A stretch of 64,000 bases of DNA, taken from a virus. Numbering within the stretch: the first letter of the stretch is position 1; each line of letters begins with the position of its first letter. A program made the translations under genes and the position numbers. Where the stretch lies: positions 96,001-160,000 of IMG/VR virus record IMGVR_UViG_3300018080_000105; one strand, given 5' to 3'. Below, one piece after another: positions 18,702 through 26,689 of this stretch. The notes under the pieces were generated by a model. That model was not told where the DNA came from. It was given only the letters and a program-made list of their open reading frames with translations, and ran no database searches.

Positions 18702-19610
18702 ATGACCCGGCACATGGATATGCACGAAGGACCGCCGCCTCCACCCGACACCTACAACGTGGAGGCCTACTGCCACAACTGTGAATACGAAGGCGAAGCG
18801 GAAATCCCCAAAGGGACCAAGGTCGACGATGCCGACTGTCCTCGTTGTGGCTGTGATTGCCTGCAGGTCAAAGCCAAATTCACTGACGACCGTGTAGAAG
18901 CCGCACCCGCTGAAGAAGTTATCGAAGATTTTCTCCGCTGGCCGCCATCACAGCTCCGCGGCCCGATTAGCCCTGCGGGAGTCCCTGCCGATAACACTCC
19001 GCAGCCGCAGTGGTACTACTGCAACGACGACAGCACGCTACGCCATGCAGATCTGCAACCACCAACTGGCGACAGAACCTTTGCTGAAAGCATTCTGCGA
19101 GCAGCCGGCGGCACAATCCACCATCAGGTTCATCCGGATGGGCGGCACACGCTGAACGGGCGGGAAATCACACTTGACCAACTGAATACCGTCACCAGTG
19201 TTGATACGCCTCTTAGCGAGCGTGTCGGCATTCTAGGACAGATTGGTGTCATTCCGCCTGGTTCACAGACAAGCGGCGACGTTGTTGTCGGGCATTACCA
19301 CAACTCGCCACCACCGCCTCCACTGGGCAGAGGCCTCACTGCTGCGCCTATGGACGCTCACGGTGTTGACAACGTACCCTCGGGCGAAGGCACGCTCGCA
19401 GTAGGTTCTCCACAGGTACCGCCAGGGCTCCTGGACACCGCTACGATCGACACCACGACGCTCGACACATTGCTGTCACTTATTGACGAAGCGGCAGAGA
19501 TCGACCCAACCATGAGCGAGCCGAGTGTTGATCCTGACGAACCGGAACCCGTCAACACAGATCCACGACTGGGTGATCCTGATGGAGTACCCTGGGAAGA
19601 CTTTCGGTAA
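18702..19610 (+). CDS. Zn-ribbon + Pro/acidic low-complexity protein
   Basis: CHNC...CPRCGC N-terminus; follows previous gene by 3 nt. Confidence 0.65.
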   Translation: MTRHMDMHEGPPPPPDTYNVEAYCHNCEYEGEAEIPKGTKVDDADCPRCGCDCLQVKAKFTDDRVEAAPAEEVIEDFLRWPPSQLRGPISPAGVPADNTPQPQWYYCNDDSTLRHADLQPPTGDRTFAESILRAAGGTIHHQVHPDGRHTLNGREITLDQLNTVTSVDTPLSERVGILGQIGVIPPGSQTSGDVVVGHYHNSPPPPPLGRGLTAAPMDAHGVDNVPSGEGTLAVGSPQVPPGLLDTATIDTTTLDTLLSLIDEAAEIDPTMSEPSVDPDEPEPVNTDPRLGDPDGVPWEDFR

Positions 19611-19618: not shown

Positions 19619-19650
19619 GAGGGGCGGCCCGGCACGGCCGCCCTGTTCTT
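19611..19650. terminator. bidirectional intrinsic terminator between convergent genes
   Basis: GGGCGGCCG-gca-CGGCCGCCC 9-bp stem with T-rich tails on both strands. Confidence 0.7.
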
Positions 19651-19658
19651 TCAGCAGG

Positions 19659-20315
19659 CTACGCCCACTCGACAACGCGGAACTTGCCGTAGCGACCACG
19701 CCAGGTTCCCAGGCCAACAGCGGTGCCACCTTCCTCGAAGATGTTCTTCACCTGCTGTTCCTGGATCTGATTGTTCGGCAGCAATGTCAGCTGGAACTCC
19801 AGAGCCCACGGCAGTGGCAGCACTGGTCGCACTTTGGGGTTAGGCACGCCGTCCTTCAACCGGGCGACGTTCCGCAGGATGTAGGCCCCTGTGGTGGGGC
19901 AGGTCTCCGTGTCCGGATCAAAGCCAGAAAACACCAGCGGCTCGTCATCACGCGTCAGTACCAGGTTCTCCCCGTGGCGGGGATCCGTCGACATGATCGA
20001 CACGAAGCTCCCGCACGCTTCCGTGAACTTCTTGTACTTCCGGGAGTCGAGCAGCCTCTTGGGTGCGGAGTCCGTATTCTTGGCGGAGAGGAAACTCATT
20101 ACGTTGTTCGACGGCAGTACGAGAGTACATCCGTCTGATGCGAAGTAGAATTTCTGTGATGGGGTCAACTTGGTGTCGTTGTCCCCGGGGTAACGATCGA
20201 ACATCAGAGGCGTCAGCCCCTCCAGTTTCACCGTTCTGCATACTACGTTCCTTGTGCCCGCTTCTGATCGGGTCGTTGGAGGTGTTGATGGAGTTGTTGG
20301 TGATACAGTCGACAT
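19659..20315 (-). CDS. stand-alone Cas7/RAMP-fold protein (Vipr-like)
   Basis: RAMP beta1 VKLEGLTPLMFDRY, DGCTLVLPSNNVMSFL helix, C-terminal Gly-rich loop EEGGTAVGLGTWRGRYGKFRVVEW; GAGGA RBS; adjacent pentamer array. Confidence 0.8.
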   Translation of the reverse strand: MSTVSPTTPSTPPTTRSEAGTRNVVCRTVKLEGLTPLMFDRYPGDNDTKLTPSQKFYFASDGCTLVLPSNNVMSFLSAKNTDSAPKRLLDSRKYKKFTEACGSFVSIMSTDPRHGENLVLTRDDEPLVFSGFDPDTETCPTTGAYILRNVARLKDGVPNPKVRPVLPLPWALEFQLTLLPNNQIQEQQVKNIFEEGGTAVGLGTWRGRYGKFRVVEWA

Positions 20316-20381
20316 AAAACATTCCTCATTCTATGAGGTCCTTGTGAGTGTGCCAGGGACCATCCCCGGCACAAAGTAACC

Positions 20382-20973
20382 ATGCCTTTCCTCGCCATGA
20401 TGTGCCGACCATGGGTGAAAATGGTAGCCTTGCCTTGCCACGCCACGCCACTCCTCGCCCCGCCGGTCCTTGCCCTGCAGAGCCGCGCCGAGCCGTGATG
20501 ACTCAACGTAAAAGAACACGCGAGCCTTGCCTTGCCTTGCCACGCCCCGCCCAGCCTTTCCTTGCCTTGCAGAGCCGCGCCGAGCCGTGATGGCTCAATG
20601 TAAAAGAACATGCTTGCCTTGCCTTGCCACGCCCTGCCCAGCCTGTCCTTGCCCTGCAGAGCCGCGCCGAGCCGTGATGGCTCAATGTAAAAAACATGCT
20701 TGCCTTGCCATGCTATTCCGCGCCGTGCCCAGCCTTGCCGCGACTCGCCTTGCCGTGATGGCTCAACGTAAAAGAACATGCTTGCCTTGCCTTGCCGCTC
20801 CTTGCCTGGCCAGGCCATGCCTGTCCTCGCCTTACCCTGCAGAGCCCCGCCAGGCCATGCTGGCTCAACGTAAAAGAACATGCTTGCCTTGCCTTGCCCT
20901 TCCCTGCCACGCCCTGCCACTCCTCGCCTCTCCTTGCCATGCAGCGCCGTACCTAGCCGGGCCTGGTTATGCT
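20382..20973 (-). repeat. array of GGC-NN pentamer tracts separated by a conserved ~27-nt linker (candidate guide-RNA array)
   Basis: six tracts (20425-20494, 20522-20586, 20614-20673, 20700-20754, 20782-20856, 20884-20963) with 14, 13, 12, 11, 15 and 16 in-register pentamers, 62 of 81 starting GGC on the minus strand; linker GCATGTTCTTTTACGTTGAGCCATCAC x5; partial tract 20382-20406. Confidence 0.92.
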
Positions 20974-21207
20974 TCAATAGCACTCCCAAGGAGGAGCGTT
21001 CCCTAGTTCCCTGTGCGTGGGGAACCGGGCTCTCAGGCGTTCATAGATCTCACGGTACTTCGCAGCCCGCTCTTCGTTGGCACCCACTCCCTTCGGGGCC
21101 TCGTCGGATTCACAATACTCTGCGTACTCTTTCGACACTGCCTCGGCCAGTCCTGGCCTTGCATCAGCGTTGAATACGAATGGTGGCGCAGACGGATAGA
21201 TCGAAAT
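20974..21207 (-). CDS. 77-aa hypothetical protein with non-canonical (ATT) start, not in ORF track
   Basis: AAGGAGG at 21213-21219, 5 nt before ATT; charged helical-looking sequence; stop abuts the array. Confidence 0.45.
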   Translation of the reverse strand: MSIYPSAPPFVFNADARPGLAEAVSKEYAEYCESDEAPKGVGANEERAAKYREIYERLRARFPTHRELGNAPPWECY

Positions 21208-21259: not shown

Positions 21260-23107
21260 TTAGCTATCAGGCGTGAACAACATGTCCAGAATGCTCCGCA
21301 CCATCCGCCGATAGGCTTGGATGTAGCGGACTCTCCCCGTCGTAACATGCGGCTCAGGGATATACACAATCTCGCGAGTAGCCACCTCAAAATCCCGGTA
21401 CCACTCTTCCTTGTTCTCAGGCGTCAACAGTGGTTCGGGGCTGTTTCCGAAAGGAGAGGCCGCCCCGTAATTGCTGTGCTGACACAAGTGGTCTACGTAC
21501 GGCGTTACGTACGAATCCCGCGGCCCCTCCGGGTAGTCCTGCTCCGCCTGCCAAACCACGAACGCTCGCACAAATGGCAGCAACACATTGTGAAACTGCC
21601 GCGGGTAAATCGGCGTATCTCGCCGCCAGTCCCCGTCGATACCGTAATTGGCAGCGGTATCGCCCACGCCTGCTATAGAGAAGTATGTGGAGATGAACCG
21701 GCGAAAAGCAGACACTCCCGAAACAACCCGAGAATTTACGGCGTCATGTAGATTTTGCGACAACGCCAGTTCATGGAATGCCAGGCCGTCCTCGTCAGAT
21801 TGCGAAAGCATTTCATCCAGCATGGCATTCAGCAACCGATTACATACCCGCCCAGCGTTATCTACTTGCAATAGCTCAGCAGCAACCACAACCCCCGGGG
21901 CCAGGAATCGCTGCAACCAGAGGTACCAGGCCCCGCTTGTCGGGTCAGTCCCTTCTATACGCGGGTCTCCTCCTCCCGGCCACAATTGTTCGAGAGCAGG
22001 CCGCAATGTGTGGAACGCCCTTACCCCTTCCGCCGACGCACGCGCCTCCACATAAGACTGAAAATACGACAGAAAGCACTCGCCATCAGCGTAATACGTA
22101 TGCGTGACAAACAGCTCCAGACACGTATTCAACATACCCATCTGGTCTTCTGTCACTTCGTCCGCCTGTTGCCGGTAAGCGAACTCCAGGACCTGCATCA
22201 GCGCGTCTGCCCGCCACTCAATGAAATCTTCATTTTCCCAGTTTGGCGGCGGATTGTTACACTCACCATACATCGGAGCATCTGCGTGACTTGGAGAGCG
22301 GAGAGACGCGACAGGCCGGGCAGCCTCACGATCCACCATGTCATCGAACGCGTCCATTGCGGCTGCTCTCGCTTCCCTTTCCTGCGCTCGTTGCTCCTGT
22401 GCTGCCTGCAGTTCTTCAGCAACCCAATCCTGCGAAACAGGTTCCAGCCCATCACCTTCACGCTCAAACTGGCCCCAGTAATCACTCGCAGGAGTTGCGG
22501 CTGCCCCGGTTAGGGCCGTATGTGCCAACTCTGTCAGTTCTTCTGAAGACAGAATGTTCTGCGCGGCAAGCAGGGCCGCAGACACGACCAGAGATGCCTC
22601 TCGCCGTGTCTGCTCGTCCCCCTGTGTTAAGCCGTCCAAAACGAACTGCACCTCTTCAGGAATCTCTTCAGGCACAGGCTCCGGGGAATCCTCCGCCCCT
22701 TCAGTCATATCGAGGTGGCGTGTCACCTGCGACTGTCGACGATTATCCAACAGCTCCTGCGTCGTTTCCTCCAGCAGTTCTTTTTGAGCATCTGCCAGAT
22801 TCTTCTCGTCGATCTCCCGCCACTCTTCATGGTAGATAGTAGCATTGCCACCCGTTCCCAGGTCCCCGCCATACCGCCGCAGAAACTGGTGAGCCGTTTT
22901 CTCGCACTGAAACACAATAATCGGCGACCAGTTCAGCACCCCGGCGTCTGTGCGGATATCAGGATAAACGACCTGCCCCACCACCTCCCACTGCCCTGGT
23001 CCGATCGCTACCACCTTCAAACCCCAGACGTTGAGCACCTGGTACTGTGTAAGGCTTTGAACACGCAACCTGTACGGTTTCGGCGTCTCGAAGGACGGCG
23101 TCGTCAC
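21260..23107 (-). CDS. large acidic hypothetical protein
   Basis: 615 aa ORF coupled to tmk stop. Confidence 0.75.
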   Translation of the reverse strand: MTTPSFETPKPYRLRVQSLTQYQVLNVWGLKVVAIGPGQWEVVGQVVYPDIRTDAGVLNWSPIIVFQCEKTAHQFLRRYGGDLGTGGNATIYHEEWREIDEKNLADAQKELLEETTQELLDNRRQSQVTRHLDMTEGAEDSPEPVPEEIPEEVQFVLDGLTQGDEQTRREASLVVSAALLAAQNILSSEELTELAHTALTGAAATPASDYWGQFEREGDGLEPVSQDWVAEELQAAQEQRAQEREARAAAMDAFDDMVDREAARPVASLRSPSHADAPMYGECNNPPPNWENEDFIEWRADALMQVLEFAYRQQADEVTEDQMGMLNTCLELFVTHTYYADGECFLSYFQSYVEARASAEGVRAFHTLRPALEQLWPGGGDPRIEGTDPTSGAWYLWLQRFLAPGVVVAAELLQVDNAGRVCNRLLNAMLDEMLSQSDEDGLAFHELALSQNLHDAVNSRVVSGVSAFRRFISTYFSIAGVGDTAANYGIDGDWRRDTPIYPRQFHNVLLPFVRAFVVWQAEQDYPEGPRDSYVTPYVDHLCQHSNYGAASPFGNSPEPLLTPENKEEWYRDFEVATREIVYIPEPHVTTGRVRYIQAYRRMVRSILDMLFTPDS

Positions 23108-23748
23108 GCAAATGCTCCCTGCAACAACTCGTTGAAGCGCTCATTTTCCTGACACACCTCCAGCACTTTGTGGCTGACGATTTGTACGTCCTGGCTGGCG
23201 TCAACCGTCTCGTAGTGCAACGAATCAGCCCAGACCTGATAGCCCTCAGAAATCCCTTTGTGCCAATCTTCCCCGCGGCTCTCAAAGCGATCCTGTTTCA
23301 GCGTGGCGCCCCGCTGCGATGCTTTCCTCGCCATCTTGGTCTCGTGATCCAGGTGCAGGTAGATCGAGATATCGGGCTCCAGGGCAGGCTGACACTGCTC
23401 AATGAACTCGCTGTCCACGCCACCCATGTGACACTGGTACACATACGTCGACAGATCCCAGCGTGTCCCGATGACAATGGTGTTCTGTAACAGCAAATCA
23501 TTGACGTGCCGAGCCAGCGAGTGGCGAGCGGCCGAATAGAGCATCACCTGCTCAATAGGCTCACACGCAATGTTGGCGTCCACCACCAGTCGTCGACAAC
23601 CCTGGCCCAACGGGGTCGTACCGGGATCTTCTACCTGCGCTACCTCGCCACCCATGCCCTGCAGAAAATCATGCAGTCGCGTTGCGATCGTCGTCTTACC
23701 ACATCCGTCACCGCCTTCCAGGACGATGAACACACCTCTGTCAGTCAT
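23104..23748 (-). CDS. tmk: thymidylate kinase
   Basis: FIVLEGGDGCGKTT P-loop, EDPG, LYSAAR, TRWDLST (DR motif variant), PDISIYL; start trimmed to MTDRG. Confidence 0.9.
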   Translation of the reverse strand: MTDRGVFIVLEGGDGCGKTTIATRLHDFLQGMGGEVAQVEDPGTTPLGQGCRRLVVDANIACEPIEQVMLYSAARHSLARHVNDLLLQNTIVIGTRWDLSTYVYQCHMGGVDSEFIEQCQPALEPDISIYLHLDHETKMARKASQRGATLKQDRFESRGEDWHKGISEGYQVWADSLHYETVDASQDVQIVSHKVLEVCQENERFNELLQGAFA

Positions 23749-23762
23749 TGGTTTCTCCAATC

Positions 23763-23804
23763 GGTAAATAAGAACGGCCGGCACCCGGTGTCAGGTGCCG
23801 GCCG
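23763..23804 (-). terminator. intrinsic terminator whose U-tract is the reverse complement of the GGTAAATAAGAAC motif
   Basis: 11-bp stem CGGCCGGCACC/GGTGCCGGCCG (23775-23804) followed on minus strand by TTCTTATTTACC (motif 23763-23775). Confidence 0.7.
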
Positions 23805-25313: not shown

Positions 25314-25557
25314 CTGCACTCTCCATATCTTCCAGCACCCGCCTGAGATCAAGGGGGTCTGCATGTTCTGCTGTCGTATGCACCGCCAAGCCGAATACTC
25401 CCCGTTTTTCAGGAGTGATCATCAGCATTTTGCAGGCGGCAGCGACGTCATGTTCGACGTCAACTGCCTTCACTGCGTCCATCACGGCCACCGAAAGGGC
25501 AACCAGTGTCTTCTCGTTCTCGGTCACGTCAGACTCCAAGGAATTCAGCCACCGCAT
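25285..25557 (-). CDS. hypothetical protein
   Basis: operon-contiguous. Confidence 0.5.
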   Translation of the reverse strand: MRWLNSLESDVTENEKTLVALSVAVMDAVKAVDVEHDVAAACKMLMITPEKRGVFGLAVHTTAEHADPLDLRRVLEDMESADGESESDPG

Positions 25558-26689
25558 CAGCTGGCTCGCCGGCTTTATGGGCCAGGTCTGTCAGCCGTTC
25601 TCGCGGAAACGGTAAGCCACCAATCATCGCAAGGATCTTGATAGCGTCATCGCCGGCCGCGGGGTAAACACCAGGGAACACAACCGAGTCTTTGGGCGTG
25701 AGGATCCGGTTCATCATTTCGATGCCGTGATCGATCACGCCCGTTTTCACGGAATTTGGGCCGTCCCAGGCCGCTCCGCTAACCACGTAAATCATACCGG
25801 CCGTGGTACCCTTTGACAGGTCCACGCTGGCCAGCACGTTACGTTTCAGCTGGTCACGGATCGGAACGGAGATATCCGAAGGCTCATCCCATTTCTGCAC
25901 AGTAGTTGCCGCAAAGGCCACCACTCCGCTGTCCAGGATCTTGGCGAAGTCTGCCGGGTCAAATGTCGTCCCGCCTTCGTCCTCCGAATCTGTGCCCGCC
26001 AGACGATTGAACGTATGCAACAGCTTCGCTGTGCTCGCGTTCGATGCCGGCTTCTCATTGCGAGCAGCCACACGATCGCCATACAGCTCCACGAACCGCT
26101 CGTTGTCAATGAAGATAATCGGACTCAGGTTCAGGCCCGGCAGCTGACGCATGGAGTACAGCACGTTCTTGGCACTGCGCTGTCCCTCTGCGTTCTTGGG
26201 CATCGCCATGATGACACCCACACGATTTGGCTTCTTCTTGGCCCGCATGTACTGCTTGGCCACTTCCGCCGCTTTCGCATAAGCACCTGCACCCGTGCCG
26301 CCCGCCCCAGAAAGGCAGACAAACACGTGATCCACGTCATCGCCCCAACACCGCGAATACAGGTCGTAAATATCTTCGCCCTTGTCTTTCGCGATAGCTG
26401 CAGCGGCGGCCGGATCTTTGCCCACACCTTGCTGGTCACCAATGTCCAGCTTGGAAGCCTCGGGGAACGTCTTCAGCTCTGCCAGGTCAGCCACGGCTGT
26501 GTTGATCGCACAGATGCGGTTGTACCCGAGTTCCTTGAACGTGCTCACAATACGACCACCAGCCTGCCCCACGCCCACGAATGCGAACTTGAAACCAACC
26601 GGGTGATCAAAACTGTCAGGGATTGCGCTGGATGCTGGACTTTCCGGGCTCTCGGAAATATCTCCAATATCGAGTTCAAAGTCACTCAC
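25529..26689 (-). CDS. tubulin/FtsZ-family GTPase (PhuZ/TubZ/CetZ-like)
   Basis: FVGVGQAGGRI T1 loop, AINTAVAD, GVGKDP, SGAGGTGAG tubulin signature, FIDNE, FDPAD T7-like loop. Confidence 0.9.
   Translation of the reverse strand: MSDFELDIGDISESPESPASSAIPDSFDHPVGFKFAFVGVGQAGGRIVSTFKELGYNRICAINTAVADLAELKTFPEASKLDIGDQQGVGKDPAAAAAIAKDKGEDIYDLYSRCWGDDVDHVFVCLSGAGGTGAGAYAKAAEVAKQYMRAKKKPNRVGVIMAMPKNAEGQRSAKNVLYSMRQLPGLNLSPIIFIDNERFVELYGDRVAARNEKPASNASTAKLLHTFNRLAGTDSEDEGGTTFDPADFAKILDSGVVAFAATTVQKWDEPSDISVPIRDQLKRNVLASVDLSKGTTAGMIYVVSGAAWDGPNSVKTGVIDHGIEMMNRILTPKDSVVFPGVYPAAGDDAIKILAMIGGLPFPRERLTDLAHKAGEPADAVAEFLGV

Follow-up and report, generated by a model that had tools for sequence, protein, structure and literature searches.

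A probable VIPR guide-RNA array with GGCAA-rich guide ends in an uncultured 184-kb tubulin-encoding phage

Systems of the VIPR type (Viral Interference Programmable Repeat) are CRISPR-like phage systems that have been described in preprints since April 2026 (bioRxiv 10.64898/2026.04.26.720920). According to the preprint text available, the guide RNA, named vrRNA, consists of 9-16 repeats of the type GGY/NN, in which Y is a pyrimidine and NN are two variable bases, followed by a conserved tail (bioRxiv 10.64898/2026.04.26.720920,.720927, 2026.10.15.759431, 2026.10.21.760802). Each repeat is bound by one protomer of Vipr, a minimal RAMP protein (bioRxiv 10.64898/2026.04.26.720920,.720927), and the NN bases pair with DNA in such a way that every third target base is skipped, the 1-nt-skip code (bioRxiv 10.64898/2026.04.26.720920). 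Binding silences the transcription of competing phages, satellites or prophages (bioRxiv 10.64898/2026.04.26.720920, 2026.10.15.759431). The text available to us gives a match of at least 80% of the NN bases for natural targets, and reports neither self-targets nor a requirement resembling a protospacer-adjacent motif (PAM); it describes a vap gene as “typically” in an operon with vipr, and stand-alone vipr genes as existing too (bioRxiv 10.64898/2026.04.26.720920). In the complex of Escherichia phage SUSP1, DNA is engaged first at the 3'-proximal subunits and then progressively towards the 5' end, each of the 12 units is paired once the complex is complete, the pocket for the third base excludes purines, and residue D177 contacts the first G (bioRxiv 10.64898/2026.04.26.720927). 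Here we describe a repeat array at positions 20382-20973 of a 64,000-nt window of viral DNA (IMG/VR record IMGVR_UViG_3300018080_000105, positions 96,001 to 160,000 of that record; hereafter, the window), which is very probably a VIPR guide-RNA array in an uncultured 184-kb tubulin-encoding phage.

A first-pass annotation made from the letters of the window had described six minus-strand tracts by their NN strings; they consist of 11-16 GGCNN pentamers each and occupy 20963 to 20425. Reading of the strand and an independent pentamer caller confirm these tracts, and all six NN strings given in that annotation agree with ours unit for unit. In the 64-kb window, the caller returned exactly six tracts; every one of them is on the minus strand, the plus strand having none. 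For T4 it gave 7 units, the extension to 11 having been made by eye across two imperfect units. The tracts lie head to tail, and 110 nt separate the end of the array from the start of a downstream gene on the same strand, vipr. A conserved block of 26-27 nt that contains TTCTTTTAC follows five of the six tracts and is degenerate after T1; the first-pass annotation had not singled it out. In the 5' to 3' direction of the minus strand, the features are as follows:

20884-20963, minus strand: predicted vrRNA tract T6, 16 GGYNN-type units with 3 GGCAA at the end (strand reading, caller)
20857-20883, minus strand: conserved 27-nt tail after T6, containing TTCTTTTAC
20782-20856, minus strand: predicted vrRNA tract T5, 15 units with 3 GGCAA at the end and TGC as unit 4 (strand reading, caller)
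20755-20781, minus strand: conserved 27-nt tail after T5
20700-20754, minus strand: predicted vrRNA tract T4, 11 units, 3 of them imperfect (GTC, GGA, AGC), with 2 GGCAA at the end (caller and eye)
20674-20699, minus strand: conserved 26-nt tail after T4, one T fewer
20614-20673, minus strand: predicted vrRNA tract T3, 12 units with 3 GGCAA at the end (strand reading, caller)
20587-20613, minus strand: conserved 27-nt tail after T3
20522-20586, minus strand: predicted vrRNA tract T2, 13 units with 3 GGCAA and then GGCTC (strand reading, caller)
20495-20521, minus strand: conserved 27-nt tail after T2, differing from the T3 tail at 3 positions
20425-20494, minus strand: predicted vrRNA tract T1, 14 units with a GT-GT-GT run and 2 GGCAA followed by GGCTA (strand reading, caller)
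20316-20424, minus strand: degenerate T1 tail and vipr leader, with a possible decayed seventh unit at about 20360-20406 and a hairpin plus U run at 20324-20338
19659-20315, minus strand: vipr, encoding a 218-aa minimal RAMP (Cas7-like) protein with the glycine-rich loop G-L-G-T-W-R-G near the C terminus

The annotation had also pointed out that 2-3 GGCAA units stand at or beside the 3' end of every tract, that T1-T3 start in common with GGCTC-GGCGC-GGCTC-TGCA, and that TGC is unit 4 in four tracts (T1, T2, T3 and T5); all of this stands. In the remaining two tracts the irregular unit is placed elsewhere, as TGC at unit 5 in T6 and as GTC at unit 3 in T4. The 81 units comprise 62 GGC, 2 GGT, 10 GGA, 5 TGC, 1 GTC and 1 AGC, hence 64/81 are GGY, and AA is the variable pair in 26 of them. 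When the 184,021-base genome was searched for (GGCNN)x6 with at most one mismatch, all 18 matches were inside the array and on a single strand, and a reversed-pattern control gave 0. Tandem Repeats Finder (TRF) detected periods of 87, 92 and 102 nt across the array, meaning that the repeat copies differ in 5-nt steps, that is, by whole pentamers. In the window, a gathering scan against Rfam gave 0 matches and a tRNA scan found none; a BLAST search of the array region and the adjoining 5.4 kb against 50,697 phage records produced no match. The assemblies of four DNA runs break at the array.

The product of the gene next to the array bears on the identity of the system. Its AlphaFold2 model (pLDDT 90.8) has 30 Foldseek matches in the PDB at E<=1e-3 and, among the matches listed, all are Csm3, Cmr4, type VII Cas7 or Cas7-11. 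For a profile built from this protein and 33 of its 53 IMG/VR relatives (those left out include L168, whose translation has a stop, and L181), the sole PDB match at E<=1 is the “SUSP1 Vipr protein” (36pp_D, E 2e-6). The alignment of this 34-sequence family has 30 invariant columns. Direct comparison with SUSP1 Vipr (translated from KT454805.2) using hhalign gave a probability of 95.9% and an E-value of 5e-9 over 51 C-terminal columns only, the glycine loop included, and paired R163, W205 and R206 with SUSP1 R138, W178 and R179. On the N-terminal side, D40 can be placed opposite SUSP1 H17 by eye. In PHROGs, the protein matches phrog_4652, whose function is unknown.

The combination of tract and gene recurs in other genomes. 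An eight-unit GGCNN-type pattern (seven full units plus a final GGC) was found in at least 139 stretches in IMG/VR, many of which have the tract just upstream of a gene with a product like that of open reading frame (ORF) 19659-20315. The clade of Vipr homologues, which has the invariant motif FDRYPGDN, comprises 53 IMG/VR contigs and 19 GTDB genomes, with Burkholderia phage vB_E436 among its members, at identities of 34-71%. The best GTDB match (71%) is a Planctomycetaceae metagenome-assembled genome, and the protein of vB_E436 is 52% identical. The clade occurs in large tubulin-encoding phages and in (pro)phages of Planctomycetota and Burkholderiales. At 68 of the 72 loci, a tract of at least 8 units lies on the same strand within 1.2 kb of the vipr homologue, and at none of the 72 on the opposite strand; 173 tracts were found near vipr versus 8 in 283 kb of outer flank. 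Like the locus described here, the relatives have same-strand GGYNN tracts beside vipr, AA-rich last units and short U-rich tails. They differ in that mostly one or two long tracts flank vipr (at least three upstream tracts are present in only 5/72 loci), and their tail sequences and neighbouring genes are unlike those of this phage.

Some individual loci deserve mention. GGA units are common in the clade, the vB_E436 tract (L148, 2868-2937) for instance also having them at 5 of its 14 positions. L195 (3402-3987, on a 235-kb contig) and L198 (3451-3644, on a 191-kb contig) have Vipr homologues of 50% and 35% identity, respectively, and upstream arrays whose tails open with a CTTTTAC-like, GCTCTT(C)TTAC-like or GCTCTTTAC-like motif resembling the tail of this phage; in L198, the array and vipr are separated by a T5orf172-like ORF. 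On the unrelated viral contigs L031, L012 and L037, GGCNN tracts are flanked by tRNA-like T-arm sequences (GGTTCGA-type). The match at L028 1501-1545 is a (GGCCC)n microsatellite, adjoined by a (CCCCTG)n run, a simple repeat and not a vrRNA, and because this microsatellite matched, the pentamer pattern alone is not specific.

We assign the locus to VIPR because of the homology to SUSP1 Vipr, the GGY/NN tracts, their association with vipr on the same strand, and the absence of Cas1 and CRISPR-type repeats. Cas1 (PF01867) had 0 matches in the genome and was detected in 7 of 14 control genomes; Cas2 and other cas genes were not searched for. TRF found no CRISPR-type repeats, the only periods in the array being 5 nt and 87-102 nt. 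The identity of Vipr and the lack of Cas1 support the earlier proposal that the tracts are guide-RNA genes without CRISPR adaptation, and the gapped NN-x reading that came with it agrees with the published 1-nt-skip code. A CRISPR-Cas array was ruled out, as there are no repeats of ~25-40 nt with unique spacers and no Cas1; a CsrA-type sponge RNA, a G-quadruplex element, iterons, a pac site and a coding repeat were dropped given the link to Vipr.

The closest described system is the type II VIPR of SUSP1, which comprises Vipr, Vap1 and four vrRNAs (KT454805.2). Both loci encode a RAMP protein of ~200 aa with a C-terminal glycine loop, and both carry, on the vipr strand, guides of 11-16 pentamers that keep two G's and a pyrimidine and have a conserved tail behind them (behind five of the six here). 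The two loci also have in common a few degenerate TGY units and the lack of a self-target. The differences are several. The units are GGT in SUSP1 and GGC here; SUSP1 has one guide upstream and three downstream of vipr, whereas all six are upstream here; the SUSP1 tail has ~40 nt with a pseudoknot, in contrast to a U-rich tail of 26-27 nt with no demonstrable fold; and no SUSP1 guide ends in GGCAA, while 2-3 such units end every guide here. In addition, Vap1 has no counterpart among the neighbours in this phage, T204 replaces D177, 12% of the units are GGA, and the host phage is a 184-kb, tubulin-encoding one. The Cas7 backbones of class 1 CRISPR systems (Csm3, Cmr4 and type VII Cas7) likewise place one subunit on each fixed step of the guide, with a thumb that periodically breaks the duplex, as far as the preprint text describes it (bioRxiv 10.64898/2026.04.26.720920,.720927), but their step is 6 nt with 5 pairing bases versus 5 nt with 2 here. 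Unlike in class 1 systems, the locus has no CRISPR repeats or spacers and the genome no Cas1, and its guides are hard-wired, apparently changing by duplication and point mutation.

By analogy with the SUSP1 and P. fulva systems, the array would be transcribed and cut into RNAs of ~80-105 nt, in which each pentamer would be bound by one Vipr protomer with the GGY hidden. The exposed NN bases would then pair with double-stranded DNA, every third target base being skipped, and the resulting filament would prevent a competing phage, satellite or prophage from being transcribed.

Several observations weigh against the assignment to VIPR, or at least against a close correspondence with the described systems. 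T204 stands opposite D177, the residue of SUSP1 Vipr that contacts the first G, in the hhalign alignment, and 10 of the 81 units (12%) are GGA although purines are said not to fit the third-base pocket of SUSP1. Beside vipr, the clade has no conserved accessory (vap) gene, about 70 relative loci sharing only vipr itself (69 loci); the commonest other neighbour family is present in 15 loci. The lack of a vap gene does not exclude membership, because the discovery paper reports stand-alone vipr genes. The tails, at 26-27 nt, are shorter than the ~40 nt of described VIPR, and comparison of their folds with shuffled sequences gave z values of +0.7, +1.4, -1.3, -1.2 and -2.1 for copies that are near-identical, with no convincing fold. 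T1 has no good tail and may be decaying. The transcription, processing and RNA ends of the array are described here by analogy with SUSP1 and P. fulva. Finally, collection-wide scans gave 0 matches for five exact gapped patterns of 10-11 units in IMG/VR, for two in metagenome contigs and for one in GTDB genome contigs, and 401 genomes from the order of the closest cellular relative yielded one match, which has 3 mismatches, falls in a ribosome-binding-site region and agrees at 0 of 6 AA-tail positions. This match looks like chance.

The first-pass annotation had proposed a check for gapped NN-x matches above background, and these exact-match collection scans found none. They covered exact matches only, whereas the preprints accept targets from 80% of matching NN bases upwards. 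The absence of target matches does not refute the guide reading, because only exact matches were considered and the DNA of the competitors is perhaps in no collection. In the phage's own genome, searched with skips of 0-3, the best NN match was 17/22 and no guide reached 80%, which agrees with the published absence of VIPR self-targets. Guide cores gave no signal against a permuted-order null; the 17/22 of T1, for example, was equalled in 13 of 60 permutations. There was no credible target in the three genomes with the closest Vipr relatives, and two patterns had 0 matches in five related viral records. The guide of a Candidimonas prophage, used for a test of the AA run, had 0 matches in 4 genomes and 0 in 121 genomes of the family.

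We also compared 479 guides with 956 kb of fetched loci. Perfect runs of at least 8 units numbered 32 with a skip of 1, 2 with a skip of 0 and 11 with a skip of 2, nearly all of them of low complexity. A non-repetitive match was seen between the guide at L136 340-439 (minus strand), which has no AA run, and another viral contig, L067, near 2567 (minus strand), with 10 consecutive perfect units at a 1-nt skip, for which we estimate ~0.01 occurrences by chance. Judged by sequence, guide and target may form a natural pair, one that does not involve this phage. When the fetched guides were compared with this phage at a threshold of at least 20/24, skips of 1, 0 and 2 gave six, four and seven matches, respectively, that is, no signal.

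One element that sets the guides apart from those of SUSP1 is the run of GGCAA units at their 3' ends. The “tail” of a VIPR vrRNA corresponds to the 26-27-nt block and not to this run. In 112 unique tracts from IMG/VR relatives, the share of AA is 36%, 54% and 53% at the last three units versus 5-11% at the first four. Counting tracts with at least two AA pairs, we found 57/114 for the last four units, 4/114 for the first four and 11/114 for the middle four (the sets of 112 and 114 tracts result from slightly different caller settings), and 20/43, 1/43 and 0/43, respectively, for tracts from GTDB. As these tracts come from related loci, the counts are non-independent events. The enrichment at the last three units is weak (14%, 21% and 17%) in a mixed set of 359 tracts selected by pattern only. 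The AA run is present in none of the four SUSP1 vrRNAs, and no mention of a GGCAA run at guide ends was found in the text of the VIPR preprints, figures and supplements being outside that search. The string GGCAA does occur in one paper, within a consensus that has no relation to it. This whole clade of Vipr loci shares the run as a constant module, so that it is not peculiar to one phage, and its conservation across the clade argues for a role independent of the guide. We infer that it has no part in target choice: it may cap or anchor the guide next to the short tail, or offer an A:T-rich point at which unwinding starts. The run may be the non-targeting handle proposed in the first-pass annotation; an A:T-rich entry site is equally live, because in SUSP1 all units pair and engagement begins at the 3' units.

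Taken together, these features permit a joint reading, which we put forward tentatively. The vrRNAs of the clade may have three parts, namely a variable core, an invariant set of 2-3 GGCAA units with no role in choosing the target, and a short U-rich tail replacing the SUSP1 pseudoknot. The AA module might then be the anchor or stop of the filament, accompanied by a rebuilt first-G pocket (T204 for D177 and, by eye, D40 for H17) and a relaxed third position at which GGA is tolerated.

Guide expansion by duplication, another proposal of the first-pass annotation, is borne out: T1-T3 are paralogues of 87-92 nt with a TRF identity of 78-84%. So is their diversification by point change. The substitutions are mainly at NN positions. 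Between T3 and T2, 0/36 fixed and 3/24 NN positions differ, and the tails differ at 3/27. For units 1-9 of T1-T3, counting from the unit lists gave 6 substitution events at 18 NN sites versus 1 at 27 fixed sites. T1 has two extra GGCGT units, a length change by whole pentamers. In a near relative from another sample, the AA run of T6 has one extra CTTGC (one more GGCAA) at 20882, as seen on a single 190-nt contig with a depth of 2.8. The simplest history for T1-T3 is that a whole unit was duplicated and that the copies then changed by substitutions and by slippage that added or removed pentamers. Their common 5' block may reflect recent duplication, a true guide for related targets or a part of a junction structure. 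T1-T3 may follow variants of one target, as the annotation had suggested; the scans above found no target for any of them. We take the TGC-type units as ordinary degeneracy, because SUSP1 and the relatives carry them at scattered places.

The rival explanations bear on the AA run, on the common 5' block and on the array as a whole. The GGCAA run could be part of the guide, its AA units pairing with TTxTTxTT as an easily melted, A:T-rich entry, in which case AAxAA(xAA) would be needed beside the targets. This is possible, though we would not favour it: engagement of DNA by SUSP1 starts 3'-proximally and all of its 12 units pair, as the available text has it (bioRxiv 10.64898/2026.04.26.720927), and the enrichment of AA falls exactly at the 3'-proximal units, but SUSP1 has no AA run, the discovery paper, in the text available, reports no PAM-like requirement (bioRxiv 10.64898/2026.04.26.720920), and Lys/Asn- or Phe/Leu-type codon triplets beside the sites of six different guides would sharply limit target choice. 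Less likely is that the 5' block of T1-T3, which is similar in T5, serves as a structural or processing signal between guides by pairing with the preceding tail and AA run, so that the mature guides would be shorter than the tracts. At the junctions before T3, T2 and T1, RNAfold indeed pairs the GAGCC of the tail with the first GGCTC of the next tract, and the region of the AA run with units 3-4; a C-to-U change in a junction leaves a G-U pair; and each of the six tracts has one irregular unit at units 3-5, which is TGC in five of them and GTC in the other, followed by GG(C/T)AA. However, the folds are not better than shuffles overall (z from -1.2 to -2.1 in the three junctions of recent duplicates, +0.7 and +1.4 elsewhere), TGY-type units are scattered in SUSP1 vrRNAs and in the relatives, and finding zero of the 6 T1-T3 substitutions in the first three units is, by our estimate, expected ~18% of the time.

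The array might instead be a decaying or orphaned remnant in which some or all guides have no targets and the changes reflect slippage and drift rather than selection. The lack of a target in any collection, the degenerate T1 tail with a possible eroded seventh unit, the slippage-like GT-GT-GT and AA-AA-AA runs and the extra GGCAA in one strain-level contig would all fit with decay. We nevertheless regard it as improbable, even more so than a processing signal, as vipr is intact and its family well conserved (30 invariant columns in 34 sequences), GGY is kept (0-1 change at 27-36 sites) while the NN positions change, and the same grammar recurs in 72 relatives. It is very hard to maintain that the array is not RNA-guided at all, being a coding repeat, a two-tetrad G-quadruplex element or an array of protein-binding sites at the DNA level. 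A 248-aa ORF does cover the array, and the GG-N3-GG spacing could in principle give two-tetrad quadruplexes. That ORF is an accident of composition: ORFs are open on both strands here as a by-product of it, and as lengths vary by 5 nt, the repeats fall in different frames, which disfavours a coding repeat. The strict strand link to a Vipr homologue (68/72 loci) and the published biochemistry of the same type of repeat also speak against these possibilities. Overall, a VIPR guide-RNA array remains our preferred interpretation of the locus.

On the minus strand, past the degenerate T1 tail, positions 20360-20406 hold three GGYNN-like units and a stretch loosely like the start of the conserved tail. 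On this weak alignment, the segment may be what is left of a seventh vrRNA, at the end of the array nearest to vipr. Further downstream (20324-20338, minus strand), a 6-bp hairpin with a U run behind it lies directly before the vipr start codon and takes in the GAGGA ribosome-binding site; such a hairpin could end the array transcripts or gate vipr translation. A sigma-70 promoter scan found 1 site versus 0.6 expected. At the other end, an open frame of ~75 codons (20974-21198, minus strand) ends 10 nt before T6 and is preceded by a strong AAAGGAGGA site. Nearby starts of the ATG, GTG or TTG type are lacking, CTG or ATT being possible, and the frame has no relative among the fetched loci.

Scans of 26 neighbouring ORFs against Pfam and PHROGs returned only thymidylate kinase, tubulin, a beta-helix protein and PHROGs of unknown function. 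An upstream gene for a 615-aa product had no relative in IMG/VR by the pattern method. The genes for tubulin and thymidylate kinase are 3-6 kb upstream of the VIPR locus. Other features of the surroundings are as follows:

19622-19644, no strand assigned: bidirectional terminator-like hairpin just past the vipr stop, common to vipr and the convergent plus-strand gene at 18702-19610 (consensus scan only)
23104-23784, minus strand: thymidylate kinase (Pfam/PHROGs scan)
25529-26689, minus strand: tubulin/FtsZ-family protein (PF00091, E 7e-11)

VIPR is already known from the preprints, and the locus is a further example that is ordinary in kind. What it adds is modest: a GGCAA module seen across the clade, a short tail, a missing accessory gene, a changed contact to the first G, and a large phage with a tubulin gene as its setting. 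In the VIPR preprint text searched for it, the word “jumbo” is absent. As a natural variant, the locus represents a six-guide VIPR array in a tubulin-encoding phage of ~184 kb. If the GGCAA units are a handle or cap, they would offer a smaller scaffold for guide engineering; if they are an A:T-rich entry site, they would constitute a hidden constraint on targeting. The paralogues T1-T3 provide a small, clean case of the diversification of hard-wired guides without adaptation machinery.

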